Origin: Escherichia phage 241Ecol014PP
Strand: one strand, 5' to 3'
Length of the DNA stretch: 64,000 nucleotides
Sequence record: OR062943.1
Positions 14,384 through 61,717 of the stretch are shown piece by piece. The position numbers and the translations under genes are program-made. The notes below the pieces were generated by a model that was not told the DNA's origin, searched no databases, and saw only the letters and a program-made list of their open reading frames with translations. Positions within the stretch are counted from its first letter, which is position 1, and each line of letters starts with the position of its first letter.

Positions 14384-15874
14384 GTGGCTAAGTATGGATT
14401 GACAGAGGCTGGTTTCGTTATACCAACCCTAAATGACCTAATCGTTGAAACTAAGCAAAGCCTGATCCGTGCTTTTGGCGAAAACTTCAACGTACAGAGT
14501 AACTCCGTTGCAGATAAGCTGACCACTATCTTCAACGAGCGAGAGTATCAACTTATTCTTATGGCAGCATCTGTATACGCATCACAGACGCTGTATGGGG
14601 CAGAAGGTATTTACCTAGATGAGCTTCTTGGAAGACAGGGTATTTACCGAAGAGGCCGTTCTAAATCATCAGGTACCTGCCAGTTGACAATCAACACAAC
14701 TGTGCCGTACAATATGATTTATGATTCCAAAACTTATACGCTGGACAGTGGCAACTTTGTTCTTAGTAATGATGTGCAAGTAGCAGGGAATCTTATTGCT
14801 CACAGAATAAATGCTCCAGACCTAAGGATTGGGAAATACAACTTCCAAATTACCAACCAAACAGACGGAAGTATCAAAACAAAAAGCCTGGTTTTAACAG
14901 ATAAGTCTCTGGACTCTTCTGATTTGCCAAGCTTTTACGGAGAGATTAAGCAATTCATTGTCGATAATACAACCCTGTTGAACGACGATTTGATTCAGAT
15001 CGATATGTTGACAGGAACGTTGTGGATAGGGTACAATTCGAATCTTGATCAAGTTGGGCTTAACAGCAGGGTAGATTTCAGAGTATCCCCGATTGTAGGG
15101 GAAAGAACTATCACACTGGATGTTATCGCTAACGAGGCTGGTGAGCTGTCAAGAGAGGCAGAAACCGTGACAACAATGTCACCTACTCCCAGTGGATTCA
15201 TCAAGCTTACCAACCGAGAAAGATTCAATGAGGGCAGGGATGTTGAGAAAGACTCAGAGTATCGCTTAAGAGCTTCCAGCACAAAACAGTTAACATCTAA
15301 GGCTACCCGTCCTGCAATCCTTAGCGCTGTAAGCGAGGTGAAAGGTGTTGAGAAAGTGAGAGTGTTCTCCAACAACACCGATAAAACTGATGCTAAAGGT
15401 ATACCTCCTTACAAGTTCCAAGTGGTTGTGTTTGGTGGTGCAACGGAGGACATTTGCCAAGCACTTTACCAAACTATAGCCTGTACGAACAGGACTTATG
15501 GTAATATTTTCTACGATGTAACTACATCTGACGGTCAAACTGAAAGAATTTATTACTCCAAGGCAAATACCTACCGCCTAGATGTAAGAATTACCTACTC
15601 CGGTGCCGCACTTTCCACAACAGAAAAAGATGCCATTGTAGAGGCTCTTTTGCAGGTTGTTAACGGACTGGATGTTGCAGATACGTTGTATAATATCCAA
15701 TTGGTCGGTGCTGCATCTGCTGCTGTGTCAATAGGCAGATTTAATAGACTGGTAATTCAAGTTAAGCCAGTAGGAGCTTCTGATGAAGCTTACACTACAA
15801 ACGATATTGTTGCGAACATGACCGAGGTGTTTGACCTCGACGAAAGTAATATAACTTTCCAACAAACTATTTAA
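14384..15874 (+). CDS. baseplate J-like protein
   Basis: 496 aa; GTG start with RBS GGAGGAG; N-terminal block ...YGAEGIYLDELLGRQGIYRRG... resembles P2 gpJ/baseplate_J from memory; gene order J-I-(x)-H-G-like. Confidence 0.45.
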   Translation: MAKYGLTEAGFVIPTLNDLIVETKQSLIRAFGENFNVQSNSVADKLTTIFNEREYQLILMAASVYASQTLYGAEGIYLDELLGRQGIYRRGRSKSSGTCQLTINTTVPYNMIYDSKTYTLDSGNFVLSNDVQVAGNLIAHRINAPDLRIGKYNFQITNQTDGSIKTKSLVLTDKSLDSSDLPSFYGEIKQFIVDNTTLLNDDLIQIDMLTGTLWIGYNSNLDQVGLNSRVDFRVSPIVGERTITLDVIANEAGELSREAETVTTMSPTPSGFIKLTNRERFNEGRDVEKDSEYRLRASSTKQLTSKATRPAILSAVSEVKGVEKVRVFSNNTDKTDAKGIPPYKFQVVVFGGATEDICQALYQTIACTNRTYGNIFYDVTTSDGQTERIYYSKANTYRLDVRITYSGAALSTTEKDAIVEALLQVVNGLDVADTLYNIQLVGAASAAVSIGRFNRLVIQVKPVGASDEAYTTNDIVANMTEVFDLDESNITFQQTI

Positions 15875-15885
15875 GGCGGCGAGAT

Positions 15886-16572
15886 ATGGCAGAGATTAAG
15901 TCGGATGTTAACCACATCCACACTCTGCCAGATTTTGTTCAGGGGGGTCTTGACTACCTACCTGGAGATTTTCTGGCTGAGAAGGTTAATTTAGTCACAT
16001 TCTTAACCGTATACCTTAAAAGGTTGGAGGATGTTGATAAGATGCTGGTAGGTTTGGCTGAAGGAAGATTGCTTAACAATGCCAGCGGAAGATACCTTGA
16101 CGAAGTTGGTAATCAACTTGGTATTCTTAGGAATGGACTTTCAGATGCTGATTTTCGTGCCACACTAATTATTCAGCAGGCCGCAGCATCAAGGGGCGGG
16201 ACTCGCGAAGATGTCATCTCCACCTTGCGACAATTGTTCGGAAGAGACAATTTCGATACGTGGAAAGGAGACAACTTCAGGTTTGACATAAATATTAGAA
16301 AAACTTGCTTTGACATATTGCAGTCTATCGATCAGATCTTAGATATGCTACCATTGCCTTGTCATTTGCGTCTTACAGAATCGCAAGGGCAAGCTTTTGG
16401 TTTTGAAGGGGACTCTACAGCTCTGGGCTTCGGATCAGTGTGGGAAGAAAACCAATTCGGAGTTGGTGGGCTGGCTACTTTGCTGTATGTTCCTGACGTA
16501 AGACCTGATTGGGACACCACAACCATTTATTGTGAAAGTATTACAGTAAACGCAACTAGACAGGAGGGTTAA
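15886..16572 (+). CDS. baseplate/tail protein (possible gpI/DUF2313-like)
   Basis: 228 aa; RBS GGCGGCGAG region; position directly after J-like gene; weak motif similarity only. Confidence 0.3.
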   Translation: MAEIKSDVNHIHTLPDFVQGGLDYLPGDFLAEKVNLVTFLTVYLKRLEDVDKMLVGLAEGRLLNNASGRYLDEVGNQLGILRNGLSDADFRATLIIQQAAASRGGTREDVISTLRQLFGRDNFDTWKGDNFRFDINIRKTCFDILQSIDQILDMLPLPCHLRLTESQGQAFGFEGDSTALGFGSVWEENQFGVGGLATLLYVPDVRPDWDTTTIYCESITVNATRQEG

Positions 16573-18644
16573 TGGCAACAGCTGTTTTTAAACCTTACCG
16601 TGATTACTCTACAATGGCTGCACAGTTTCATTACCGAACAGTTCAGGATACTGCCGTTCCTGGTAGAGATTATAATCATGTTGAGGGCGATGTAACTATC
16701 CCAATTGGGGCAACCAGTATTGAGATCCCCGTGGAAATTGTTGACAAATTACCCAACAGGTTGCCAAGAAGCTTCTTTATGGAGTTTTCATCAAAATCTC
16801 AAGGGGTAATGATTGGAACACAAAGGGCGAAATGTACAATAGTTTCAGATGAGAATCTCGACAGGATATCTTGGGATACTGTTGAGGAGAGAATGTTCCA
16901 CCCAAGATATTGGGTTACAACTACTCAGCAGACTGAAAGTACCTGTATTGTTGCAGATAACAACTGTTGTATTAACCGTTTAGTGTCAAGAACATATGGA
17001 GGTATGGCTGGGTGCATTTGGGAAACAGTTGACAAGTATGACCATTTCGGCATTGGGTTTGATGATCATTATGAGATGAGAAACACCAAGCTATGGTTCA
17101 GAATGTCAATAACCAACGCCAGCAACTTCTCCACTCCTGAAAAGATGATTATGACTGTAGACCTTGTTGATGGCACAATCATCTATGTTCCTTTAGCTCA
17201 ATATGCTGTCAGCATCTCAGAGGATAAGAATGTTGCAGAAATTCATATTGATTTTGAGGACTGCGTCGGGATGGACCAGAACAACAACATGATGGGTGTT
17301 GATCCTCGGCAGGTGAGAAGGATTTTAATACCACTTATGCCTAAAGACTGGGTAAGTAACAGCACAGACCCGAGAACGGAAAACGTAGAGTGTGAGTTGC
17401 GCCTAGATCTGCTTCAGCCAGACACAGGCTGGAAAATGATGCAACTTAATAATATCCAGGTGAAAGAACACGACGTTGGAATCTGCACAGCATATGACGA
17501 TATGTGGAACGTATCCCCTTTAAGGGTGTTGAACAATATCAAACGTCTGGGCTATACCGGAACCATAAACCATTATGTTGGTATGAGTCATTATTATGAC
17601 TACACATGGTCAGGAACCCAATGGTCTATAAACAAAACAGGAGCGCTAAACGCTGCAGCTTATAAATGGCATGATGATTTTATGTACAATGCCAAACGAC
17701 ATAACTTCGACGTTATGCAATCTGTAAGTTTTGAGCTTTTCAGTGATGCCTGCCCGTTGGAATGGACCCAAAGAGACTGGAACGATAACTACGCTAAAAC
17801 AGGGTATACACCTTGTAGTTACCTCCTGTCTCCAACCATTGAAGAGGGTATGAATTTTCTTACTGCAGTATTTAAGAATTTTGCATCAGCCGCTATGAGA
17901 AACAATCTGCCAGTGATTATGCAGGTTGGTGAACCATGGTGGTGGTACAATACCGATACTCGTAGACCTTGTATTTATGATTACCCTACAAAGCAGGCGT
18001 TTTATGATGAGACAGGTGAGTATGCATTAGATATTGGGACTATTGACGATCCTAAAACTGGCGGTGTTTACGATAAGTATGTAGCATTTTGTCGTGGTAA
18101 GCTTGGCGCTCGTATTGCAGCTATTTCAAAGGCAATAAAGGCACACGCTGCATCAGCTCAGATGACAGCTTTGCTGTTTTTCCCAACCATCATGGAAACC
18201 GAGCTTACACAAAAGCTGAACCTTGCTGACCAATATAAAAAGGAAGCAGGTGCTCTTGATTTCTTCTGTACCGAGTGCTACGATTGGGTGATGCAGGGAG
18301 GTATTGAAAAGGCAAAAGAGTCTGTAAACATACCTATCGTTAAGTTAGGCTGGCAACCGTCTGAAATACAATACCTTGCAGGGTTCGTTCCTAGTAAAGA
18401 GCTTGCTCCGGTATATGGCTACGACCCAACTAGGAATTACCAAGAATTTTTATGGAGATGTATTTGCGGAAACATGGCAACTATAGAGTATAGATACCCT
18501 GAGGTAAAACAGTATGTGTGGGCATACCCGCAAGTAATGTCTGACAGCATCACTGTTACCGCTAGAGATTCTACCGTGCTTCATATGGGGCAGGTTGCTC
18601 TGAAAGGGTATGTAGAAGATGTTGTCCCGCCAGACTTCTCATAA
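16572..18644 (+). CDS. structural protein with N-terminal Calx-beta-like domain, possible tail-associated hydrolase
   Basis: 690 aa; N-terminus TAVPGRDYNHVEGDVTIPIGATSIEIPVEIVDK...CTIVSDENLD fits Calx-beta pattern; remainder Trp-rich. Confidence 0.35.
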   Translation: MATAVFKPYRDYSTMAAQFHYRTVQDTAVPGRDYNHVEGDVTIPIGATSIEIPVEIVDKLPNRLPRSFFMEFSSKSQGVMIGTQRAKCTIVSDENLDRISWDTVEERMFHPRYWVTTTQQTESTCIVADNNCCINRLVSRTYGGMAGCIWETVDKYDHFGIGFDDHYEMRNTKLWFRMSITNASNFSTPEKMIMTVDLVDGTIIYVPLAQYAVSISEDKNVAEIHIDFEDCVGMDQNNNMMGVDPRQVRRILIPLMPKDWVSNSTDPRTENVECELRLDLLQPDTGWKMMQLNNIQVKEHDVGICTAYDDMWNVSPLRVLNNIKRLGYTGTINHYVGMSHYYDYTWSGTQWSINKTGALNAAAYKWHDDFMYNAKRHNFDVMQSVSFELFSDACPLEWTQRDWNDNYAKTGYTPCSYLLSPTIEEGMNFLTAVFKNFASAAMRNNLPVIMQVGEPWWWYNTDTRRPCIYDYPTKQAFYDETGEYALDIGTIDDPKTGGVYDKYVAFCRGKLGARIAAISKAIKAHAASAQMTALLFFPTIMETELTQKLNLADQYKKEAGALDFFCTECYDWVMQGGIEKAKESVNIPIVKLGWQPSEIQYLAGFVPSKELAPVYGYDPTRNYQEFLWRCICGNMATIEYRYPEVKQYVWAYPQVMSDSITVTARDSTVLHMGQVALKGYVEDVVPPDFS

Positions 18645-50284: not shown

Positions 50285-53200
50285 ATGAGCATGTATAGCT
50301 TCGATTTTGAGGCCTCCGGGCTTTTGGAAGACCCAGATCTTTATTACCACTGCGGCCTGTTTAAAGAGCTGAATAAGAACCGTTTTATGCTGTTCCTCCC
50401 TCTAAATGACCGCACACACTACTCCGAGGAGGATATAGAGAAGGCTAAGAACTTCATTCTGGCAAAGAAAACTCTTTATAAAGATTTTGAAGTTCGCATA
50501 GCAGATTTTTCGGAGTTGGAAGGTTGGCTTACAGGCAATTCCGACTGGTCACCAACAGCTTTGAACTGCCATAACTGCTACAGTTATGACTTTATGCTGA
50601 TGGAGAAATTATCCGGTATTCATTTTGATATGTTCCGTGATCCTAAATGCATGGGTACTATCAACGATCACCAGGTTAACCTGTTCGATACGTTGGCGAT
50701 GAGCCGAATCTTGTGGCCTGATCGCCCTTTACCAAAAGGTTGTCCGGACTCTGTATTCAACCCGGTTACTAAGAAAATGCAGCCTGTTGGTGCCCACGGC
50801 CTTATGGCATGGGGCTACGCCCTTGGTAACCAGAAAGTTCAAATTGATGACTGGCGTGATCTTCCGTTGTGGAAGTATGTGGATCGTGTATTCGAGGACG
50901 TTATCATCCAGGAGCTGCTCTGGAAAGAGCTGGTAGCGGAATCAAAAGGTGTATTCTACGGCAAATCTGACATGCAGAACTTTATGTACGATCCTGCCAA
51001 AGAGAAGCCGAAAGGGTTCAAGAAGATCACCTGGAAGAACGCATTACGCCGGGGTATGCTGCAGCACTTCCTGATGGAGCTGCAGGCCCGTCAGGGTGTA
51101 TACTTCGACATAGATGGAGCTATTGCTTTACGTGACCGTTGCGATGCGTGGATGAAAGAGATCGCTGATCGTGTTGAACCTCAACTTCCTTTAAAAGAGT
51201 TGTCAATGTCTCAGCGGCCCAAGTTCCCTGAAAAGCCGTTTAACCAAGATGGGACAATCTCCAATAATGGTTGGAAATGGTTAAAAGATAAGCTTGGCTA
51301 TCCTGTGGACATGAGTGCTTTAGAGTTCAAAGCCCCGCCTAAGCGAGCATTTACCTCCACAGGAGATGTCAGCAAGATGGGGATAAAATGGTGTGAAGAG
51401 ATGGGCTGCAAAGACCCCGATAAGATGGCTGATTTCTTGAGAGGCTATATTAAGGGCACTTCCACACCACACCCTTTACCTAAAGAGCTGATGGATCAGG
51501 CGATAAGTGATCTACAGCAGAAGCGAATGCCGGACTGCAAGATACCTATGAAAATCAGCAATCAGGACGACATTAAGCGATACCTGATCAGTGCTGGTTG
51601 GCTTCCGACAATGTGGAGAACTAAGGATGTAACTAAAGACAGCAAGAAGAAAGCTCTACCTGATGCAGATGTTGATGCACGAGTATATGCATATATGGAC
51701 GAGCTTTTAGAGTCAGAGTATTGTGATCTGATTATCAACTTCTGGAACAAAACTGATGCTAAGTTCCAGACAACCGTGCACAAGTTCCGAAGCTTTCCTA
51801 ACTCCGAAAGGATTAAAAAGGAAGTGTTCGGGAAAATACGTAGAAAAGCCAGAGCACTTATTACTTCTCCGCAGCTGAAAGATACGTTTGGACACCTATG
51901 CCCAAATCTTGAAAAATTGAACGGAGAGATGGCTAAAGATATCGTCTTGTGGTTATCATTGCGAAACCGCAGATCGGTCCTTGATCCAATCAAGGAGGAT
52001 AAGGTTGATACTGGTCTTCTTAATCACCCACGTTTGAAGATTGACCATAAGCTTCCTGCTAAAAGTTCTGGGTTAACAAACACTTCCCGACAGAAACACA
52101 GTATTTGTGCAAACATGCCTAAACCATCTCCTAAAGTGGTTATGGGTAAAGAGATGCGTAGTCTGTGGGGTGTTCCTCCAGGATACTTTGAGATCGGTAT
52201 TGACGGGTCCAACTTAGAGCAGCTTATCGGGGCTTGGGGTGCCTTTGAGTTCGACAACGGCCTGTATTATGATGTTGTAAGTAACGGCGATGCACACTGT
52301 TATTCAGGAGATACACAAATTCTCACGGAGAAAGGGTGGGTGAGGTTTGAAGATCTTGATCCGGGAACACAAGTGTTCCAGTACGATCACAACACCTCGT
52401 CGATGAACCTTGTTACTCCATTAAATTACGTTAAGCGTAGTTATTGTGGGGATATGTATCATTTCCACAACAGCAGTGTGGATTTTATGGTTACAGATCA
52501 ACACAGGATGCTGACCGTGGATCACAGAAGCAATAAATTGTTTGAAGATTTGGCAAAAGACCTGAAAGCAGGTAAAGGGTCTAATTCAGGAAGAAGGTTT
52601 ATCCATGCGGCAGAGTTTTATGGGAATACAACCTTATCTCCTGCCCAGATTAATTTGCTTATTGCTATTCACGATGATGGGCACTTGCATACAAATAAGG
52701 ACGGCAGCATCGTGTGCAGGATTCAGGTCGGGAAGGGCAGAAAAGTTGCAACGCTTTTAGATACTTTTTCTGCTCTAAGCCTTAGTTATGTAGAGCAGAG
52801 CGGGAAAACCACAAAAGGGGGCTTACTGGCGAGAAGGTTCCAATTCCACGTTCCGTCCTGGGTATTTGAGTTTTTGGACAGCAATAAGGATTTCACCTAC
52901 AACCTGATGGACCTTGATAAAGAATCTAAAAACCTGTTTATAGCTTCTTTATCTAACTGGGACGGATGGGTATCTTCCGAAGGTGGAAAAGTTGCCTACT
53001 ACTCTCAGTCCGAGTGCAGGAAGAAATCTGTAGAGGTTGTGTCTGCGCTGGCTACTCAGTGTGGTTTACGGAATAATACGGTGGCGATTCACAAAAAAGG
53101 TCGTTCCGTACAGCACAGAATCACGATTGGTAGCAAACAGAGAGCAGGGTTGCTGACACTATCTAAAGAGTCTGTCGAGGTGAGTGGTTCTTTGGTTTAT

Positions 53201-53677
53201 TGCGTTACCGTCCCTTCTGGAGCAATCATTGTGAGAAGGAATGGTAAAGTGGCAGTGTGCGGTAACTGTAATAACGCCAAAGCTTACTCTTCTGTAGCAG
53301 GCAAGGAGATTTCCCGTAACGATGGTAAGCCTGTCACGTATGGGGTTATGTACGGGGCACAAAAAGATAAAGTTGCAGATATGCTGGATATCTCCCCAGA
53401 GTTGGGGCAAAGGGTGATCGATGCACTTTGGGATGCCAACCCCGGTCTTAAGGGGCGCAAAGAGGATCTGGAGAAATTCTGGGAAGCAACAGGTAAGAAG
53501 TTTATCTACTCTTTTGATGGTCATGCTATCTGGACTCGATCTAAACACTCTTTACTTAATGCATACCAACAAAATGGTGGTGCATCGCTGTGTGACTTAG
53601 TTGGGATACTCATGCACCACCAAATGGTGAAGCGTGGGTGGTACGATGAAGGTGTTCGTCGTATTATTTATTACCAT
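50285..53677 (+). CDS. family A (T7-like) DNA polymerase, exon 1 (contains an in-frame intein)
   Basis: RBS AAGGAGAA; exo motif FDFEASG; motif A region IGIDGSNLEQL; after intein motif B KPVTYGVMYGA; ORF stops at 53683 before motif C, implying an intron. Confidence 0.8.
52298..53266 (+). mobile_element. intein (about 323 aa) with LAGLIDADG-type homing endonuclease domain, inserted between polymerase motifs A and B
   Basis: Begins CYSGDTQIL (block A) with MVTDQHRMLTVDH (block B, TxxH); ends ...VAVCGN followed by +1 Cys (CNNAKAY); internal LLIAIHDDGH and LFIASLSNWDGW motifs; host junction NGDAH/CNNAK parallels T7 NGDIHTKNQ. Confidence 0.7.
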
Positions 53678-53953
53678 AAATAACATTGTGGCTTCATAGA
53701 GTAATCTATGTCGAATAACCTCTTTAACTGCGGGAAGCCTAAACCTTATGGCAAGGTAATCCGCAACGAAGCGCTCAAAAGAGCGAACGCTCAGAGGCCA
53801 TTCCGAAAGGAAGTAGACCAGCAAGTGCGGTCGAAATGGGAGGATTCCTGTGGTTGCTTATCATAGGAATATGAGATGGTCCGATCCTACGTGAAAACGT
53901 ATGGCTATGCACGTAATGGTGCGGGGTAGCTTAACGACCTACCTGAACTATTG
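53678..53953 (+). mobile_element. ORF-less group I intron (276 nt) splitting the DNA polymerase gene just before motif C
   Basis: Exon 1 ends ...YYH (last nt U at 53677), exon 2 begins DEYQIQV at 53954 giving HDE motif C; intron last nt G at 53953; intron GUGG (53688-53691) can pair with exon CCAU (P1 with U.G); in-frame stops inside. Confidence 0.6.
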
Positions 53954-54307
53954 GATGAGTACCAAATTCAAGTCCCTGACACGCCTAAGTATAAGACTGT
54001 GTACACCTTCGACACAATTGAAGAACTGGAAGCATTTAAGGCAGAGCAGGAGGCCAAACTTCATGTGTTTGACGGTCATAAGTACAAAAAGGCACGCAAG
54101 GATGAGAACGGAAACGAAGTGGTTGACAGAGACGGAAACACGGTGTACGATCCTATCCTGAACGATGACGGAAAGCTTGAACTTATCTGGAGCCCTGTGG
54201 GTGAAATGGTGGTGCATTGCTTCTGGCAAGCTTCTAAAATGATGGGCGTCCCGTTCCAGATCACAGGTGAATACTTGTGTGGGGCTAATTGGGGTAGTTG
54301 CCATTGA
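53954..54307 (+). CDS. DNA polymerase exon 2 (motif C to C-terminal His)
   Basis: DEYQIQV...GEYLCGANWGSCH parallels T7 polymerase C-terminus HDEIQV...WAICH from memory. Confidence 0.7.
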   Translation, partial: DEYQIQVPDTPKYKTVYTFDTIEELEAFKAEQEAKLHVFDGHKYKKARKDENGNEVVDRDGNTVYDPILNDDGKLELIWSPVGEMVVHCFWQASKMMGVPFQITGEYLCGANWGSCH

Positions 54308-54327
54308 TCTGATAAGAGATATTTGCT

Positions 54328-54975
54328 ATGGAAGAATGGAGAAAACTGGTTGGCAGGGAGGCCAACTATGAAGTTAGCAGTAAAGGAAGGATTAAAAGGC
54401 TGTCTTACCTGAGGAAGTACAGTAACCAAACAGGTAAAGTTACTTTCAAAGCTGTCCCTGACAGGATTTTAAAAGGTAGCGTAGACAGTAGCGGTTACAT
54501 TCAAGTAAATGTAGATGGAAGATCGGAATTGCTTCACAGGTTAATTGCCGAGACCTTTCTAGAGCCTCCTTCAAAAGAGCTTGTAGAGGAATGTAAGGCA
54601 GCAGGGCTGGACTATGTGCCGATCAATCATAAAGACCATAACCGCCTAAACAATGCTGCTGACAACCTTGAATGGGCCTCGCCTTCAAAAAATGCACAAG
54701 ATGTGGACTACGACTACCATAAAACAAGAGGGGAAAGTTCATACTGTGCAAAACTTAAAGAGCGAGATGTTGACGAAATATTAAAGCTTTCCAAAACAGG
54801 TATGTCACAGCAAGCTATAGCAGATCTTTTCGGTGTTAATCAGATAACCATTTCCAATATCTTGACAGGTAGGAGTTGGGCATGGTACACTGGGATACCT
54901 AAAACCGCAAGGTGTAAAAACAAAAGGGGGAGATCCCCGAAAAGCATGTCTGAGCAAAATTTCTCTGTAAGCTGA
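54328..54975 (+). CDS. free-standing HNH homing endonuclease (NUMOD4-like N-terminus + HNH + C-terminal HTH)
   Basis: 215 aa; EEWRKLVGREANYEVSSKGRIKR; INHKDHNRLNNAADNLEWASPSKN; C-terminal MSQQAIADLFGVNQITISNIL. Confidence 0.75.
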   Translation: MEEWRKLVGREANYEVSSKGRIKRLSYLRKYSNQTGKVTFKAVPDRILKGSVDSSGYIQVNVDGRSELLHRLIAETFLEPPSKELVEECKAAGLDYVPINHKDHNRLNNAADNLEWASPSKNAQDVDYDYHKTRGESSYCAKLKERDVDEILKLSKTGMSQQAIADLFGVNQITISNILTGRSWAWYTGIPKTARCKNKRGRSPKSMSEQNFSVS

Positions 54976-57798: not shown

Positions 57799-58164
57799 AT
57801 GGAACAAATGAACGATCAAGCGTCGGTTGCGATGAACGAGCAAGAACAACCTCAAGAATTTTTCTTAGGGTTAAGTAAAGATCAAGTGTCTCTTTTGCTA
57901 GTGCTTTCTTCTTTCATGGGAAGACTTCAGGAGCTCACACAACAGCCGGAGGCTGAACAATTATTTCAGGCTCTGCGTGAAGAAGAAAAATATCGTCGTT
58001 TGGACTATGCCTTAGGTTGGGTAGCTCAACAACGAGATATGCTGATGGCCCTCTCTGGGACCACAAGTTTTGCAATGGGCCTGTTGGCTCAAGTTCAGGA
58101 CAAATTAATTCAAGCAGGGTTTGCACACACGGCAAACACTAACGAAGAACAAGGAGACAAATAA
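57799..58164 (+). CDS. hypothetical helical protein
   Basis: 121 aa; RBS GGAG. Confidence 0.45.
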   Translation: MEQMNDQASVAMNEQEQPQEFFLGLSKDQVSLLLVLSSFMGRLQELTQQPEAEQLFQALREEEKYRRLDYALGWVAQQRDMLMALSGTTSFAMGLLAQVQDKLIQAGFAHTANTNEEQGDK

Positions 58165-59390
58165 TGAGCGTTATTCAACAATTCGCTAACCCGATGAATC
58201 CGCGTGAAACTGTTTTACTGGCTCACGGCATGATTAAACGCGTCAGCATCAAGCCTATCAAAGGTGCTGATCCTACAACAGGTATTAAAACCACTGTGTG
58301 GCAAGGTAAGAAAATTGAGTCCAGCCACACCATCTCTTTACTGATTTCTGAACTGGATTCCTCTGATAACCTGCTTCAAGGTGGTGAAGAAGTCTGGATC
58401 AGCATGGGTGATAAACTGCTTAAACCGGGTCATCAAGACTCTGTCTCTGTTAAAATTGATGACAAGTGGGAAACCGTAACACCGGGATGGATCGTAAATA
58501 TTCCTTTGAAGGCAAACGAGCATAACGGTAAGACCTATTACAAAGGCTCACTGGCTAAGATGGTCAAGCTGGGTGCAGGAGAGGCTCCAGCAGCGACTCA
58601 GCAGCAAAAACAGCAACAAGGTGCACAATCACAAGGCCAGAAGCAGAAACCTCAGCAGAATGCCAATCAGGACGTTTTACGCATCTACGGTGATGTGACT
58701 CAGATTGTTGGCAACGTGGTTACTGTTAATGACCACAAGATTGGCGAAGGTGCTATGGTTGTCACTGATGAGCAGCTTAAAGACCTGGTGGTGGGTGGTC
58801 GTGTTGCCGCCATTGTTGACAAAGACACCGGAAACATTATCAGTGGTTTCAAAGCCTATCCACCTAAGGCAGAGAACGGCACTCAAGGCTCTGGTGGCAA
58901 GCGTAAATCATCTTACGACCCTATCGGTGTGGAAACGGGGCATAGCATCAATGCGTTGCAGATCATCCTGGATCGCGGGTTTAAGGTAGACGACCCACTG
59001 GGCGTGGCTAAAACACTGCACGTAGTCACCATTGAGCTTAAGAAAGAGTATGCTCAAGCCACCAACCGAACTGAAGATGAAGTAGGTGCCAGTGTCGGTA
59101 ATGCGGTGTTGAACGCTTGTCGCCGTATTGACAAGAAAACGAAAGTTGATGATTTTGCAGCGGCAATTACTGCAGAAGCAAAAGATGTCTTGACTAATCT
59201 GGCTGAACCGTTGTACGATTGGATCAAGAACGGTGCTGGGTCAACCGACCATCAAGAACCTCAGGCTGCCAAACAGGAAGCAGCTCCACAGCAAAACACT
59301 GTAGACGCTCCTCCTGTAAATGATGAGGGAGATGACCCGATGGATCAGAATCCAGCACAGTATGAGTTCGATGACTCGATCCCTTTCTGA
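58164..59390 (+). CDS. protein with SSB-like Gln/Gly-rich linker and acidic C-terminal tip (...EFDDSIPF); possible single-stranded DNA-binding protein or SSB-tail mimic
   Basis: 408 aa; RBS AAGGAG; C-terminus DDPMDQNPAQYEFDDSIPF parallels E. coli SSB ...DFDDDIPF; poly-Q linker; N-terminal OB fold not recognisable by eye. Confidence 0.5.
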   Translation: MSVIQQFANPMNPRETVLLAHGMIKRVSIKPIKGADPTTGIKTTVWQGKKIESSHTISLLISELDSSDNLLQGGEEVWISMGDKLLKPGHQDSVSVKIDDKWETVTPGWIVNIPLKANEHNGKTYYKGSLAKMVKLGAGEAPAATQQQKQQQGAQSQGQKQKPQQNANQDVLRIYGDVTQIVGNVVTVNDHKIGEGAMVVTDEQLKDLVVGGRVAAIVDKDTGNIISGFKAYPPKAENGTQGSGGKRKSSYDPIGVETGHSINALQIILDRGFKVDDPLGVAKTLHVVTIELKKEYAQATNRTEDEVGASVGNAVLNACRRIDKKTKVDDFAAAITAEAKDVLTNLAEPLYDWIKNGAGSTDHQEPQAAKQEAAPQQNTVDAPPVNDEGDDPMDQNPAQYEFDDSIPF

Positions 59391-59398
59391 GGTCAGTT

Positions 59399-59977
59399 AT
59401 GAAATGCAAACGTTGTGGAGAGGACAAGGAGGCCTCCGACTTCTACACCAGTAACAAATCAACGTGCAAAGAGTGTTGCAAGAAGGCCAGCAGGGAGGCT
59501 GACCAATTTGCTAAAGACTCTTCAGAAAAAGGTGTAATACGCGTGCTGTACAAGTCTCAAAAGTGCAACAGCAAGCAAAGAGGTCACCCTCCTCCGACTT
59601 ACACCAAAAAAGAGTTTAAGGAGTGGCTATACCTGAACGGTTACAAAGAGTTGTATGATCAGTGGGTAGCCAGCGGATACGACAAAAGGAAAAAGCCTTC
59701 TTGTGACAGGATAGATGATTTCAAAGGGTACTCTTTTGATAATATCCGTTTAACGACTTGGGGAGAAAATAAAGACAAGCAGACAGAAGATATTCTGTTA
59801 CATAGAAGCACCAGCGGTAGACGGTGCAAAAATGTAAGGAGGTTGGACATGAATGGTAACGTTCTTAAAGAATGGGTATCCCACAACTCTTGTAGCAGAG
59901 AAACCGGAATATATATTGGTTACTACATTCATGAAAAAATTCCAGCTCCAGATGGATACTTCTATGAATACTTTTAG
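59399..59977 (+). CDS. putative HNH-family endonuclease-like protein with N-terminal zinc finger
   Basis: 192 aa; CKRCGEDK...CKECC; degenerate HNH block SCDRIDDFKGYSFDNIRLTTWGEN. Confidence 0.4.
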   Translation: MKCKRCGEDKEASDFYTSNKSTCKECCKKASREADQFAKDSSEKGVIRVLYKSQKCNSKQRGHPPPTYTKKEFKEWLYLNGYKELYDQWVASGYDKRKKPSCDRIDDFKGYSFDNIRLTTWGENKDKQTEDILLHRSTSGRRCKNVRRLDMNGNVLKEWVSHNSCSRETGIYIGYYIHEKIPAPDGYFYEYF

Positions 59978-59992
59978 CACCTAACTGACATA

Positions 59993-60020
59993 GCCCTGCC
60001 CGAAAGGGTGGGGCATTTTT
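59993..60020 (+). terminator. rho-independent terminator; 22-nt hairpin identical to 47349-47370
   Basis: GCCCTGCCC-gaaa-GGGTGGGGC then ATTTTTGTAT. Confidence 0.7.
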
Positions 60021-60039: not shown

Positions 60040-60456
60040 ATGACATTAGAAGATATCATTGTTAAGCCTGAGAACTATGACCAATACAACCTGTCAACTC
60101 AATCTGTAGACCTCGGATGCGCCACAGTCAGTGCATGGCTGGTTAACGGAAAAGAGCTTGACGAGTGCCTGGAAGCACACATGTCGGTGAATAAATTCCT
60201 TGATGAAAATACCCACTGGCTAGAGGGTGCAGGAGTATATGCTTCATGGTTGGAGAGTATGGGATTCAACTACCAATCTGAAGAGGGGTGGTGGAGCTAT
60301 TTAGCTATCTGCCCAGAGACGCTGCAATGCTTCATGAAATATTCTGAAGATTTGGAGTACCGGGCGGTGGTTGATAGTGCTATTGCCCGTTATAGCCGTA
60401 AACCTTTTTCCCACGACATTAAAACTGTGGAAGAATTTGTTGAAGTTTTCTGTTGA
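60040..60456 (+). CDS. hypothetical protein
   Basis: 138 aa; RBS AAGGAGA. Confidence 0.45.
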   Translation: MTLEDIIVKPENYDQYNLSTQSVDLGCATVSAWLVNGKELDECLEAHMSVNKFLDENTHWLEGAGVYASWLESMGFNYQSEEGWWSYLAICPETLQCFMKYSEDLEYRAVVDSAIARYSRKPFSHDIKTVEEFVEVFC

Positions 60457-60481
60457 CACAGGTTGAAAGGTGTGCAATTAT
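60453..60481 (+). promoter_or_regulatory. promoter-like TTGACA with weak -10 (AATTAT)
   Basis: TTGACA 60453-60458 overlapping stop of upstream gene. Confidence 0.35.
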
Positions 60482-60552: not shown

Positions 60553-60750
60553 ATGATTTATCGAATCCGTGTAAGAGAAGATGCACCAGGCTGTTACTTT
60601 GACTGGCGTGGGTGGTGGTTTCTCCACCCGATGGATGGACTCACAGATAGAATGCTGGATGCTGCCCTTTATACAGATACCGATATAGAATATAATCTCT
60701 ATCTGAAGGACGGTATAGATAACGGCCTATTTGAAGCAATTCCTGTGTAA
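60553..60750 (+). CDS. hypothetical small protein
   Basis: 65 aa; RBS AGGAGG. Confidence 0.4.
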   Translation: MIYRIRVREDAPGCYFDWRGWWFLHPMDGLTDRMLDAALYTDTDIEYNLYLKDGIDNGLFEAIPV

Positions 60751-60818
60751 GAGACTGTGATAGCTATGTTTTATGATCTTCCTGTAGCGCCACCACCTGT
60801 TGAACCCGGAGAACTAAG

Positions 60819-61244
60819 ATGATCTATGAAATGCCAAAACTGATTCGTGACGATGCCCAAAACGCTCACACCATTATTATGGGCAAACGCATGGATATTA
60901 TTTGTCATAAAGATTTCTGGGAAGGAAGTTACTTCACAGAGTATTTTGGTAAACTGGACAATGGTCTGCTGATCCAGTTCTACACCGATGCGGAAAACAA
61001 CATTCCCTGGGAGTTCGAAACTGAAGATGTCAATAAACTTTTCACCTTCCTCGGTATTAAGGTTAAGGCCAAGTTTGAAGAAGGTGAGTGCGACGATTGT
61101 GGATTTTATGAGGTAACAGATTTCTACCTTCCTAGCGGTAAGAACCTTTACTATGAAAGCCACTTCGGTAACTCCAATATGCCACAGTGCTGGACTGAGT
61201 TTTTTGAAATTGCGGAAGAGGAGCTGGCTTACCGTGATTATTGA
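60819..61244 (+). CDS. hypothetical protein translationally coupled to downstream macrodomain gene
   Basis: 141 aa; RBS CCGGAG; 3' end overlaps predicted macrodomain start by 11 nt. Confidence 0.45.
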   Translation: MIYEMPKLIRDDAQNAHTIIMGKRMDIICHKDFWEGSYFTEYFGKLDNGLLIQFYTDAENNIPWEFETEDVNKLFTFLGIKVKAKFEEGECDDCGFYEVTDFYLPSGKNLYYESHFGNSNMPQCWTEFFEIAEEELAYRDY

Positions 61245-61692
61245 TACTGTAGAGGGAGATTTAATCTCCCTTTTTAAGAGCGGTGCTGGTCACCTGATCC
61301 ACGGTTGTAACTGCTTCCACACAATGGGCAAGGGTATAGCAAAACAGATTGCCCGTGAGTTTCCTCAAGCACTGTCAGCCGACAAAGAGACTAGATACGG
61401 TTGCCTAAGTAAACTGGGTGCGTTCTCCCGATGGGAGCACTTATCTCCGATAGGTATTGTCTACGGAATCAATCTATATACCCAGTTCTACCCAGGACCT
61501 AATGCTGAGTATTTCTCAATCCTGAAAGGCTTTGAGCTAGTCAATGAAGTATTCAGCGGATCGACTTTACCATTCTACATCCCTAAGATCGGGTGCGGCA
61601 TAGGCGGTTTGAAGTGGGAACACGTAGAGGACGTTATTAACCTTGCCACTTTCGACATAGATATTGTCGTGGTGGAGTACAAAAAGTGTTGA
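61234..61692 (+). CDS. macrodomain protein (TARG1/OARD1-like, ADP-ribose processing)
   Basis: Start uncertain (GTG 61234 with RBS AAGAGGAG; track start 61153 would overlap upstream gene); GDLISLF...AGHLIHGCNCFHTMGKGIAKQIAREFP resembles TARG1-type macrodomain. Confidence 0.55.
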   Translation: MIIDTVEGDLISLFKSGAGHLIHGCNCFHTMGKGIAKQIAREFPQALSADKETRYGCLSKLGAFSRWEHLSPIGIVYGINLYTQFYPGPNAEYFSILKGFELVNEVFSGSTLPFYIPKIGCGIGGLKWEHVEDVINLATFDIDIVVVEYKKC

Positions 61693-61717
61693 CGACCATC
61701 TTCTGAGGTGATATAGT
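61689..61717 (+). promoter_or_regulatory. sigma70-like promoter TTGACG-N17-TATAGT
   Basis: TTGACG 61689-61694, spacer 17, TATAGT 61712-61717. Confidence 0.55.

Follow-up and report, generated by a model that had tools for sequence, protein, structure and literature searches.

A Tk.4/AdfM-family macrodomain gene of a Vequintavirus with a putative role against DarT2, and its overlapping neighbor ORF-A

The window, that is the whole 64,000-nucleotide stretch of DNA analysed here, originates from a Vequintavirus, an rV5-like E. coli phage, and carries on its plus strand two overlapping genes, ORF-A and a macrodomain gene, both of which are real and conserved. We propose, at a probability of roughly 0.6, that the macrodomain gene represents, in Vequintavirus, the phage Tk.4/AdfM family of stand-alone, DarG-like "orphan antitoxin" macrodomains that counter DarT2, and that ORF-A is a separate accessory gene. 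A preliminary description of this DNA had already suggested a role in countering DarT-type defence, and the suggestion is backed by the homologous anti-DarT factor of T4, the macrodomain protein Tk.4 (also termed AdfM), which is needed for the growth of T4 on DarTG2 hosts. In BLASTP, Tk.4 is 39% identical to the window protein over residues 1-150 (E 3e-41, 122 bits), a level of identity that limits how far its anti-DarT function can be transferred. Most Vequintavirus records, including those of the BASEL phages Bas48, Bas54 and Bas55, still list the macrodomain gene as "hypothetical" or "phosphatase"; the label "Tk.4/AdfM-family, Gln-type orphan ADP-ribosyl hydrolase" could now be proposed, and the value of the assignment lies mainly in annotation.

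Gene layout and expression signals

The preliminary description had reported a pair of plus-strand ORFs, both of which exist where it placed them, but the second had been over-extended at its 5' end (Table 1). The mechanically called ORF (61153-61692) begins at ATG 61153 and adds 27 residues that occur in no homologue. All of the 56 aligned homologues start at "MII/MIV", and the GenBank records of relatives place the start at the GTG. From these comparisons the true start of the macrodomain gene is read as GTG 61234, and its overlap with ORF-A as 11 nt, not 92 nt; an overlap of 11 nt is likewise annotated in HdK5, Bas48, Bas54 and Bas55. An antisense ORF (60771-61163) is regarded as spurious, because ORF-A is conserved and under purifying selection, with a dN/dS of 0.07-0.17.

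Table 1. Positions of the genes, codons and sequence signals in the window
Feature	Position	Strand	Remarks
Best sigma-70-like promoter 5' of the unit	60453-60481	+	TTGACA-17-AATTAT, extended TG; candidate from consensus scan only
Shine-Dalgarno GGAG of ORF-A	60808-60811	+	7 nt 5' of ATG; from sequence
ORF-A	60819-61244	+	141 aa, function unassigned; overlaps macrodomain gene
Recombination patch	61100-61700		Sliding identity against Bas55
Shine-Dalgarno GGAAGAGGAG of macrodomain gene	61214-61223	+	Within ORF-A, at its 3' end; 10 nt 5' of GTG 61234
Overlap GTGATTATTGA	61234-61244	+	11 nt, from macrodomain start GTG to ORF-A stop TGA
Macrodomain gene	61234-61692	+	152 aa, single-domain, ALC1-like; phage Tk.4/AdfM family, PHROG 335
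Codon of His23	61300-61302	+	
Codon of Asn26	61309-61311	+	
Codon of Gln84	61483-61485	+	
P-x-I-G-x-G-x-G-G loop	61582-61608	+	
Sigma-70-like promoter	61689-61717	+	TTGACG-17-TATAGT with TG; begins at macrodomain stop codon; candidate from consensus scan

The upstream promoter candidate probably drives a 65-aa ORF (60553-60750), ORF-A and the macrodomain gene as a single transcript, and the consensus scan found no promoter-like or terminator-like site between 60750 and 61689. At the downstream candidate, the following transcription unit would begin. The region had also been described as promoter-rich; it contains 16 sigma-70-like sites compared to 11.3 ± 3.6 in shuffled sequences, which is no significant excess. 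By contrast, the translational coupling proposed in the same description fits the data, as a second, divergent allele keeps both the overlap and the Shine-Dalgarno sequence that lies within ORF-A; the latter sequence is found in HdK5 and in the divergent allele of Bas55. The two genes are probably translationally coupled, and this coupling, together with their co-transcription, would be accounted for by the tight packing of early phage genes. A hairpin that pairs the GUG of the macrodomain gene was considered as a coupling device and rejected; it is weak, present in the window (z -2.4) and not kept in Bas55. A separate hairpin within macrodomain codons 7-14, considered as a regulatory element, follows the peptide G-D-x-[IV]-[AS] and is gone where that peptide differs.

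Fold and active site of the macrodomain

The assignment of the second gene to the TARG1/DarG class holds across several lines of evidence. The protein matches Pfam PF01661 (Macro) at 2.2e-06 (28 bits; cutoff 22), the PDB profiles of DarG (2e-17), TARG1 (1.6e-15) and SCO6735 (6.3e-15), and, with its macro part only, the PADLOC DarG model at 2.9e-13. In addition, it matches PHROG 335 at 2e-59. Its AlphaFold2 model has a pLDDT of 96.4 and a pTM of 0.91, and a Foldseek search against the PDB gave TARG1, Poa1p, DarG and SCO6735 as the best structural matches. The top 23 matches are TARG1, Poa1p, DarG, BT1257 and SCO6735 (TM 0.65-0.78), with two designed serine hydrolases at ranks 20-21 as the sole exceptions. 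Altogether, the model is that of a TARG1/DarG-class (ALC1-like) macrodomain with a three-layer α/β/α macro fold.

The active site departs from the TARG1-like one that had been expected. Human TARG1 (C6orf130) is the best Foldseek match, with a TM of 0.78/0.85 and an identity of 23-25%; its His32 aligns with His23 of the window protein, and the PxIGCG loop is common to both. However, the Lys84/Asp125 dyad of TARG1 is replaced by Gln84 and Gly124, and the position of DarG Lys80 is also occupied by the glutamine, which aligns with TARG1 Lys84 as well as with the lysine in the PTKK motif of Mtb DarG. The two putative ADP-ribose-binding glycine-rich loops, MGxGIA and PxIGxGxxG, are both present. 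In two alignments, of 56 and of 12 homologues, the residues His23, Asn26 and Gln84 are invariant or nearly so, as are M31, G32, G34, A36, P117, I119, G120 and G122. Asn26 corresponds to Asn22 of DarG and to Asn23 of PhiKZ AdfM, a residue needed for the activity of the latter.

Judged from these alignments, the active site is SCO6735-like rather than TARG1-like. SCO6735 of Streptomyces coelicolor (PDB 5E3B) is an ALC1-like cellular protein, in contrast to the phage-borne macrodomain of the window, and superimposes on it with a Foldseek TM of 0.74/0.76 at ~22% identity; in both, a glutamine replaces the catalytic lysine of TARG1 and DarG. SCO6735 efficiently cleaves dT-ADPr DNA and rescues cells from DarT, and mutation of this glutamine (Gln85, equivalent to DarG Lys80 and TARG1 Lys84) in the Q85A variant abolishes activity (PMC9411070). 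For DNA binding, SCO6735 has an extended mobile loop with Lys89 and Lys94, in addition to Lys34 (PMC9411070). Lys34 and Lys89 do not appear to be conserved among the phage proteins; the window protein has Lys33 within MGKGIA, where the family consensus is alanine, and its loop after Gln84 (FYPGPNAEY) contains no lysine. Beyond the literature that we consulted, the T4-type AdfM family lacks the DarG/TARG1 lysine and carries the SCO6735-type glutamine in its place, and a lysine-independent mechanism is therefore predicted.

The absence of the catalytic lysine and aspartate of TARG1 would also suit a non-catalytic binder, which might act as a sponge for immune signals derived from ADP-ribose, for example Thoeris gcADPR or His-ADPR, or as a stoichiometric inhibitor of DarT, and catalytically dead SCO6735, DarG and TARG1 do still inhibit DarT by interaction (PMC9411070). 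We give this explanation very little credence, as the glutamine at the catalytic-lysine site is invariant and its counterpart is needed for SCO6735 catalysis, Asn26 is invariant as well, and the Adpp protein of Vibrio phage Gary, which has the same residues, is an enzyme.

ORF-A and the exchange of macrodomain alleles

With a pI of 4.36 and a net charge of about -16, the ORF-A protein is very acidic; it is also rich in aromatic residues, with a variable N-terminal half and a highly conserved C-terminal half that contains the motif EGECDDCGxYxVxD..LPSG...YxExHFGNxNxPxxWxEF. Its fold prediction is confident but orphan, in agreement with the earlier statement that it has no recognisable fold. The invariant residues Cys91-x-x-Cys94 and His115 possibly bind a metal. 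At the sequence level, ORF-A does resemble a VWD-like motif, each of seven repeats being 40% identical to it over 53 aa; as a VWD domain it was rejected, with no Pfam VWD match and no VWD fold. The cysteines of VWD form extracellular disulfides, which suggests that the likeness may result from convergence or chance.

Outside Vequintavirus, ORF-A is confined to Krischvirus and a small number of metagenomic contigs; it is 92-99% identical across ~115 Vequintavirus records and 39% identical to the Krischvirus homologues. The preliminary description had presented the two genes as a module with ORF-A as the possible cognate factor, a proposal that the distribution does not bear out: the very common macrodomain family has ~2,770 phage records compared to ~180 for ORF-A, the two genes are unlinked in Krischvirus, ORF-A lacks an adjacent macrodomain gene on three metagenomic contig types, and the macrodomain gene is exchanged separately. 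We therefore consider a true two-component counter-defence improbable. In such a system, ORF-A might take over the part of the missing DarG C-terminal domain and bind DarT2 in trans, or might target or regulate the hydrolase. It would agree with the phage macrodomain lacking the DarG C-terminal domain, with the 11-nt overlap and internal Shine-Dalgarno sequence that are conserved in ~115 Vequintavirus genomes and in both macrodomain alleles, with a recombination patch that takes in the last 48 codons of ORF-A, and with the co-occurrence of the two families in both phage groups where ORF-A occurs. This co-occurrence, however, carries no information, as the macrodomain gene is present in nearly all T-even-like phages; in addition, T4 Tk.4 works without ORF-A. 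In Krischvirus JSE, ORF-A lies upstream of dam and overlaps it, whereas in the related GEC-3S the macrodomain gene occupies the vs-tk slot, the two sites being ~8 kb apart by record coordinates. On the three further metagenomic contig types (contigs L007-L010), no macrodomain gene was found within 3-4 kb of ORF-A, so that a conserved pairing was found neither in Krischvirus nor on these contigs. Moreover, the DarG HMMs of PADLOC and NCBIfam do not match ORF-A, and the idea that it substitutes for the C-terminal domain of DarG was rejected. In the scheme that we favor, ORF-A would be a separate, acidic accessory gene with a new fold, rather than a dedicated partner of the macrodomain.

Comparison with Bas55 showed flanks that are 97-100% identical to the window, whereas the last ~140 nt of ORF-A and the whole macrodomain gene are only 70-89% identical. 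The dS is 0 in the 5' part of ORF-A, 0.675 in its 3' part and 1.12 in the macrodomain gene, for which the dN/dS is 0.105. Among Vequintavirus, the macrodomain falls into two identity classes as against one for ORF-A. These values point to the patch being a second, old macrodomain allele under purifying selection, swapped between otherwise near-identical phages, and to recombination having exchanged the macrodomain gene separately from most of ORF-A. The exchange of such an old and divergent allele fits an arms-race gene. In transposon data for Bas54, insertions were present at 21/23 and 31/31 TA sites of the two genes (in the order reported), both of which are non-essential, and a natural deletion takes out ORF-A and the macrodomain gene together. 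The macrodomain gene is bas54_0092 in Bas54 and bas48_0091 in Bas48, and ORF-A is bas54_0091. Non-essentiality, natural deletion and allele replacement all agree with an accessory, arms-race character.

Proposed function and comparison with known systems

T4 Tk.4 and the window macrodomain are both single-domain proteins of ~150 aa that share the motifs HGCNCFHTMG-G-A, NLYTQF-PGPN and P-x-IG-GIG. They differ in genomic position, as tk.4 sits in the vs-tk slot, whereas the Vequintavirus gene follows ORF-A in a block downstream of the DNA polymerase gene. The nearest relative outside Vequintavirus is a Krischvirus protein of 70% identity, which is encoded in the T-even vs-tk.4-tk slot. A tk.4 knockout of T4 becomes sensitive to DarTG2, and tk.4 was the sole significant gene in a genome-wide transposon screen; these are genetic data reported in a preprint, whose authors infer that Tk.4 removes ADP-ribose enzymatically (bioRxiv 10.1101/2025.11.20.689424).

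In the proposed mechanism, host DarT2 would block replication by attaching ADP-ribose, taken from NAD+, to thymidines of single-stranded phage DNA. The phage macrodomain would bind the ADP-ribose in its macro pocket, where the glycine-rich loops (residues 32-36 and 117-125) presumably hold the diphosphate, and would hydrolyse the bond between thymine N3 and ribose C1'', so that ADP-ribose is freed and the template restored. Catalysis would be lysine-independent as in SCO6735: Gln84 would position the distal ribose, and a water held by the backbone would start the reaction. As the window protein has no DarG C-terminal DarT-binding domain, it would act on the product of the toxin and not on one particular toxin.

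A role in phage-internal ADP-ribose metabolism, where the macrodomain would reverse, or clean up after, the action of a phage enzyme that uses NAD+, either an ADP-ribosyltransferase or the sirtuin, is hardly probable. Bas54 does encode a "sirtuin domain NAD-dependent deacetylase" (bas54_0207), and TARG1-class macrodomains hydrolyse O-acetyl-ADP-ribose, as the PDB name of TARG1 indicates, which would allow either deacetylation of O-acetyl-ADP-ribose or reversal of sirtuin ADP-ribosylation. However, the sirtuin gene is on the opposite strand at a distance of ~50 kb, the T4 gene list has Tk.4 yet no annotated sirtuin, and the macrodomain family spans many phage groups whatever their sirtuin content. 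Regulation of a phage ADP-ribosyltransferase, as once suggested for this gene, is not supported, as no such enzyme is annotated in the relative Bas54, whose genome is complete, and none was found in the window.

A further rival reading is an Adpp-type ADP-ribose-1''-phosphate phosphatase directed against host RES-domain NADases (aRES), and RefSeq does name the family "phosphatase". Here, cleavage of NAD+ by aRES would yield nicotinamide and ADPR-1''-phosphate, and the phage enzyme would strip the 1''-phosphate from the latter for ADP-ribose to be recycled. Adpp of Vibrio phage Gary (KNV71_gp137) belongs to the same family (35% identity, E 4e-20), has His23, Asn26, Gln84 and the glycine-rich loops in common with the window protein, and converts ADPR-1P to ADPR in vitro (bioRxiv 10.64898/2026.01.28.702374). 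Yeast Poa1p, also an ADPR-1''-phosphate phosphatase, is among the top structural and sequence matches. Since the catalytic residues are common to Gary Adpp and the window protein, sequence alone cannot fix the substrate. Nevertheless, we consider the phosphatase reading unlikely. Adpp is of use only when Adps and Namat are also present (bioRxiv 10.64898/2026.01.28.702374), between whose genes it lies in Gary, and tblastn searches of the window and of the complete Bas54 genome with these two NARP1 proteins gave nothing (E > 1). Tk.4 is also the closer homologue, at 122 bits compared to 68 bits for Adpp. Furthermore, an alignment of 15 proteins, with genomic context noted where evident, separated the two kinds: the signature HGCNC/YTQ occurs in the window protein and in 10 of the 10 sampled homologues that are not NARP1-linked, T4 Tk.4 included, while all five sampled NARP1-linked proteins, from two unrelated phage groups, have HQ[CA]NC/YGQ, which the window protein lacks. 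Gary Adpp itself carries HQCNC/YGQ and an insertion after the glutamine. Beyond the literature consulted, this two-position signature (residues 24 and 83; HGCNC/YTQ versus HQxNC/YGQ; n = 15) appears to distinguish Tk.4-like from NARP1-linked Adpp proteins, and could help function assignment across ~2,800 phage genomes.

The macrodomain may, on its sequence, perform both anti-DarT hydrolysis and ADPR-1''-phosphate dephosphorylation. A bolder proposal is a bipartite Vequintavirus anti-DarT system, in which the new-fold ORF-A would bind and neutralise DarT2, as the C-terminal domain of DarG does in cis, and the macrodomain would erase the DNA adducts, or, in a milder form, a general bifunctionality of Gln-type macrodomains; we hold this to be very improbable. 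If true, such macrodomains, as dT-ADPr-DNA glycohydrolases and ADPR-1''-phosphate phosphatases in one, would serve against both DarTG2 and aRES.

DarG of DarTG2 (PDB 5M31, 5M3E and 5M3I; NCBIfam NF048014) gave the best PDB sequence match. Like the window protein, DarG has the conserved asparagine and a GxGxGGLxW loop without the aspartate of TARG1. They differ in the lysine-to-glutamine replacement and in the C-terminal DarT-binding domain, which is missing from the window protein, as only positions 4-142 of the 329 in the HMM are matched; the NCBIfam DarG model scores 46.8 bits, far under its cutoff of 250 bits. DarG also has a darT neighbor, whereas none was found beside the window gene, where PADLOC models gave no match for the three upstream proteins scanned (ORF-A, the 65-aa ORF and a 138-aa ORF). 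Among phages, gp104 of PhiKZ (Chimallivirus AdfM) is likewise a stand-alone macrodomain that counters DarTG2 via ADP-ribose removal from DNA, and this more distant, Lys-type protein removes T-ADPr from DNA in vitro (PMC13309987). PhiKZ AdfM keeps the DarG-type lysine (N23/K78) and enters the phage nucleus, whereas the Tk.4 family has a glutamine, the name AdfM being common to both.

Genomic setting and expression signals

The segment 60000-62500 matched 119 phage records by megablast, 115 of them with at least 80% query coverage at 90-99% identity. Judged by their names and by the taxonomy given in each opened record, the great majority belong to Vequintavirus (rV5-like phages of E. coli), and 'Campylobacter phage' is a wrong label on some of them. 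Alignment revealed that ~18.2-81.2 kb of Bas54/MaxBurger is colinear with the window, in which ORF-A and the overlapping downstream macrodomain gene (macro gene) correspond to bas54_0091 and bas54_0092, respectively. Both are part of a long run of small plus-strand genes that lies downstream of those for helicase, primase and DNA polymerase. The polymerase gene has three interruptions relative to Bas54, the first of which is a probable intein. Moreover, the window lacks a ~1.3-kb segment encoding bas54_0070 ('putative N6 adenine methyltransferase'); at window ~46150, the blastn alignment skips from 15326 to 16661 of Bas54 (L023). Closer to the pair, bas54_0087 was classed as 'Essential' by transposon mutagenesis of Bas54 (8/57 TA sites disrupted), and the endonuclease gene next to its counterpart is an insertion missing from HdK5, Alma and Bas55. 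The metagenomic protein P0104 joins an N-terminus of this endonuclease family to an ORF-A-family C-terminus, which suggests that the mobile gene is able to land inside ORF-A.

Coordinates of features in the window and of related loci
Feature	Position	Strand	Remark
DNA polymerase gene	50285-54975		three interruptions relative to Bas54
Polymerase insertion (probable intein)	52297-53294		in-frame, ~1 kb, inside a 1132-aa ORF (925 aa in Bas54); weak Hint-domain match at aa 672-706
Group I intron	53668-53903		in polymerase gene; Rfam RF00028, 64.7 bits
Polymerase-gene insertion	54295-54973		~680 bp
Homing-endonuclease ORF	54328-54975		NUMOD4/HNH; borne by the ~680-bp insertion
408-aa Gln-rich protein	58164-59390		PHROG 4477, no Pfam; = bas54_0087, no annotated function
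192-aa ORF	59399-59977		PHROG 1035, 'endonuclease VII'/HNH-like, no Pfam match; = bas54_0088, 'putative homing endonuclease'
Terminator-like hairpin	59993-60014		strong; follows 192-aa ORF
Promoter-like site	60453-60481		good site
ORF-A	60819-61244	+	141 aa; GGAG 7 nt before ATG
Direct repeat CCAGTTCTAC	60974-60983 and 61482-61491		10 nt; codes Q-F-Y in ORF-A and macro gene
von Willebrand D-like segment	61047-61190		ORF-A residues 77-124
Divergent patch	61100-61700		counterpart in Bas55 (L006), 2370-2960
Macro-gene hairpin	61251-61275		codons 7-14
Promoter-like site	61689-61717		good site, right after macro stop
NARP1-linked homologue, Ceto (L020)	1501-1977
NARP1-linked homologue, Gary (L021)	2001-2477
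NARP1-linked homologue, VPG01 (L025)	2504-2995

The two ORFs overlap, as the preliminary description stated. The macro reading frame is open from ATG 61153, but the true start is GTG 61234: 'MII/MIV' is the start in 56/56 aligned homologues, and the GTG is used in the curated annotations of HdK5, Bas48, Bas54 and Bas55. The overlap is thus 11 nt (GTGATTATTGA), and GGAAGAGGAG lies 10 nt 5' of the GTG; overlap and Shine-Dalgarno sequence are the same in a second, divergent allele. Such an overlap with an internal Shine-Dalgarno sequence is consistent with translational coupling. A hairpin of the window that pairs the GUG codon is not conserved. The supposedly promoter-rich region is not enriched, with 16 promoter-like sites against 11.3 ± 3.6 in shuffles; nevertheless, from the positions of the two good sites, the macro gene is probably co-transcribed with ORF-A and a 65-aa ORF as a single unit.

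Inside codons 7-14 of the macro gene lies a stable hairpin that leads into a U-run (GAGGGAGAUUUAAUCUCCCUUUUU), with equivalents in Bas55, Krischvirus GEC-3S, T4 tk.4 and Pseudomonas phage C11. The homologues carry compensatory GGA/TCC to GGC/GCC changes, and the hairpin is missing wherever the peptide differs from G-D-x-[IV]-[AS]. This element may serve as an attenuator or in RNA stability, or be a by-product of palindromic codons.

ORF-A and its linkage to the macro gene

The product of ORF-A is very acidic (pI 4.36, net charge about -16) and has an orphan fold; searches of Pfam, NCBIfam, PADLOC and PDB sequences gave no match. Its family is tiny: 4 clusters in a word-seeded search, 11 matches when phmmer was run exhaustively against 1.84 billion representatives, and 9 in a profile search; by tblastn it occurs in about 117 Vequintavirus and about 60 Krischvirus records. 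Nearly all invariant residues fall in the C-terminal half (G89, C91, D92, C94, G95, Y97, V99, D101, P105, G107, Y111, E113, H115, F116, G117, N118, N120, P122, W125, E127 and F128), among which the CxxC...H residues could hold a metal. The gene is under purifying selection (dN/dS 0.07 for its 3' part). The AlphaFold2 model, which is confident although built from only 9 sequences (pLDDT 92.1), comprises two beta-beta-beta-alpha units.

The conserved segment CDDCGFY..DF.LPSG....FGNS resembles the C-terminal end of eukaryotic von Willebrand D (VWD) domains (CGLCGxY..DDF.TPxG....FGNSW), with 40% identity over 53 residues to each of 7 repeats of a 3189-aa VWD/C8/TIL protein. A relationship is supported neither by the Pfam VWD model nor by the fold search, and the resemblance is probably convergence or chance.

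ORF-A had been proposed as a possible cognate factor of the macrodomain in a two-gene module. The overlap would fit such a partnership; however, the distribution of the two genes makes it very improbable. The macro family has a distribution about 15 times as wide as that of ORF-A, and Tk.4 of T4 functions in the absence of ORF-A. Krischvirus JSE has its ORF-A overlapping with the dam start, and the macro gene of the related GEC-3S occupies the vs-tk slot; the two sites are roughly 8 kb apart in record coordinates. Metagenomic contigs L007-L009 and L010 carry ORF-A homologues with no macro gene within 3-4 kb; the homologue of L010, which derives from a contig of 138 kb, shares 71% identity with the ORF-A of the window. 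ORF-A overlaps whatever gene comes next, dam in the case of JSE. The overlap reflects gene packing, not partnership, and the linkage is lineage-specific.

Recombination argues against a module as well. Compared to Bas55, a sharply bounded patch made up of the macro gene plus the 3'-terminal ~140 nt of ORF-A has 70-89% identity between flanks of 97-100%, with dS of 1.1 and 0.68 for these two parts and 0 for the first 279 nt of ORF-A. The patch is an old allele, so that exchange of the macro gene by recombination is largely independent of ORF-A. Two macro allele classes exist within Vequintavirus, Bas54 and Bas55 carrying the other one (about 82% identical in protein).

In Bas54 HIDEN-SEQ data on K-12, both genes were 'Non-essential' (bas54_0091, 21/23 TA sites disrupted; bas54_0092, 31/31). 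Resampling, from the table in which bas54_0140 is strongly depleted, gave no depletion (log2 fold change +0.52 and +0.42, respectively; q = 1). The protein P0004, from a 135.5-kb contig, is a natural in-frame ORF-A(1-55)::macro(85-152) fusion of 121 aa, explained by the direct repeat: loss of the 508 nt between the CCAGTTCTAC copies yields exactly this fusion. As this natural double loss-of-function variant removes both genes, they are both dispensable, in line with the transposon data. Our best guess is that ORF-A acts as an independent early accessory protein binding a host factor.

Fold and active site of the macrodomain

The TARG1-like fold is borne out by several searches. Pfam Macro covers the N-terminal motif only (28 bits), but the protein matches PHROG 335 at 2e-59, and a 56-homologue profile retrieved Mtb DarG (2e-17), TARG1 (1.6e-15), SCO6735 (6.3e-15), Taq DarG, BT1257 and Poa1p from the PDB. 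The PADLOC DarG model matches at 2.9e-13 over its macro part only (positions 4-142 of 329), and the score for NCBIfam antitoxin_DarG is 46.8 bits (cutoff, 250). The AlphaFold2 model (pLDDT 96.4) best resembles TARG1 (TM 0.78/0.85), Poa1p, DarG and SCO6735 in Foldseek. The gene is under purifying selection (dN/dS 0.105 at dS 1.12).

Among the 56 homologues, G24, N26, G34, A36, N80, Q84, P117, I119, G120 and G125 are invariant and H23 nearly so. In profile alignments, Asn26 matches the conserved Asn of Mtb DarG, and its counterpart in Taq DarG is, by homology, probably Asn22. Gln84 aligns with the catalytic Lys of Mtb DarG (PTKK) and with TARG1 Lys84, and Gly124 takes the position of TARG1 Asp125; therefore, both the Lys84/Asp125 dyad of TARG1 and the DarG lysine are missing. 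SCO6735 likewise has a glutamine (Gln85) at exactly the catalytic-Lys position. It was the most efficient dT-ADPr DNA hydrolase of three enzymes compared, and it rescues cells from DarT, with Q85A or Q85E inactivating it (PMC9411070). By analogy, the Gln84 pocket should not be dead.

Relatives and proposed function

GenBank already lists close to identical genes as 'macro domain protein' or 'phosphatase'. The main rival reading, an Adpp-like phosphatase activity, draws on KNV71_gp137 (Adpp) of Vibrio phage Gary, which dephosphorylates ADPR-1''-phosphate (bioRxiv 10.64898/2026.01.28.702374). Adpp belongs to the same family as the window protein (35% identical to it, and also to T4 Tk.4) and has H23, N26, Q84 and the Gly loops in common with the window protein. 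Together with NARP1 it overcomes aRES NADase defence, and the phosphatase is of use only in this combination (bioRxiv 10.64898/2026.01.28.702374). The homologue of Vibrio phages Ceto, Gary and VPG01 is flanked by a gene annotated 'ribose-phosphate pyrophosphokinase' and one annotated 'nicotinamide phosphoribosyl transferase', which are Adps and Namat of the NAD+-reconstitution operon NARP1; the Pakpunavirus homologues adjoin the same genes. However, Gary Adps and Namat have no tblastn match in the window or the complete Bas54 genome. Furthermore, a small alignment of 15 proteins shows H-Q-[CA]-N-C and Y-G-Q in the five that are linked to NARP1, which come from two unrelated phage groups; these have His-Gln rather than His-Gly at positions 23-24 and Tyr-Gly-Gln rather than Tyr-Thr-Gln at 82-84. 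The motifs of the other ten, T4 Tk.4 and the window protein among them, are H-G-C-N-C and Y-T-Q. This two-position signature may separate ADPR-1P phosphatases from AdfM-type proteins. The signature and the missing NARP1 genes favor an AdfM role in the window phage and leave the phosphatase reading unlikely, although the protein may have both activities.

The preliminary description also considered regulation of a phage ADP-ribosyltransferase, but none is annotated in Bas54, whose sirtuin-domain gene lies about 50 kb away. The window protein belongs to the Tk.4/AdfM family as a Gln-type, stand-alone, putative DarG-like hydrolase, and we consider, with a probability of roughly 0.6, that it removes the thymidine-ADP-ribose made by DarT2 on phage DNA.

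By tblastn the family occurs in 2,771 phage records; its representative in T-even-like phages is tk.4, a gene flanked by vs and tk, and the GEC-3S protein from this slot is 70% identical to the window protein. T4 Tk.4 shares 39% identity over the full length (E 3e-41) and the same HGCNCFHTMG and NLYTQF motifs. A genome-wide transposon screen on a DarTG2 host singled out tk.4 as the one gene that T4 needs there, and its clean knockout sensitised T4 to DarTG2; the gene was named adfM, and the authors of the screen inferred enzymatic ADP-ribose removal (bioRxiv 10.1101/2025.11.20.689424). PhiKZ gp104, also named AdfM, confers protection against DarTG2 and in vitro strips DNA of T-ADPr (PMC13309987). 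This phage macrodomain is separate and Lys-type, whereas that of the window is Gln-type.
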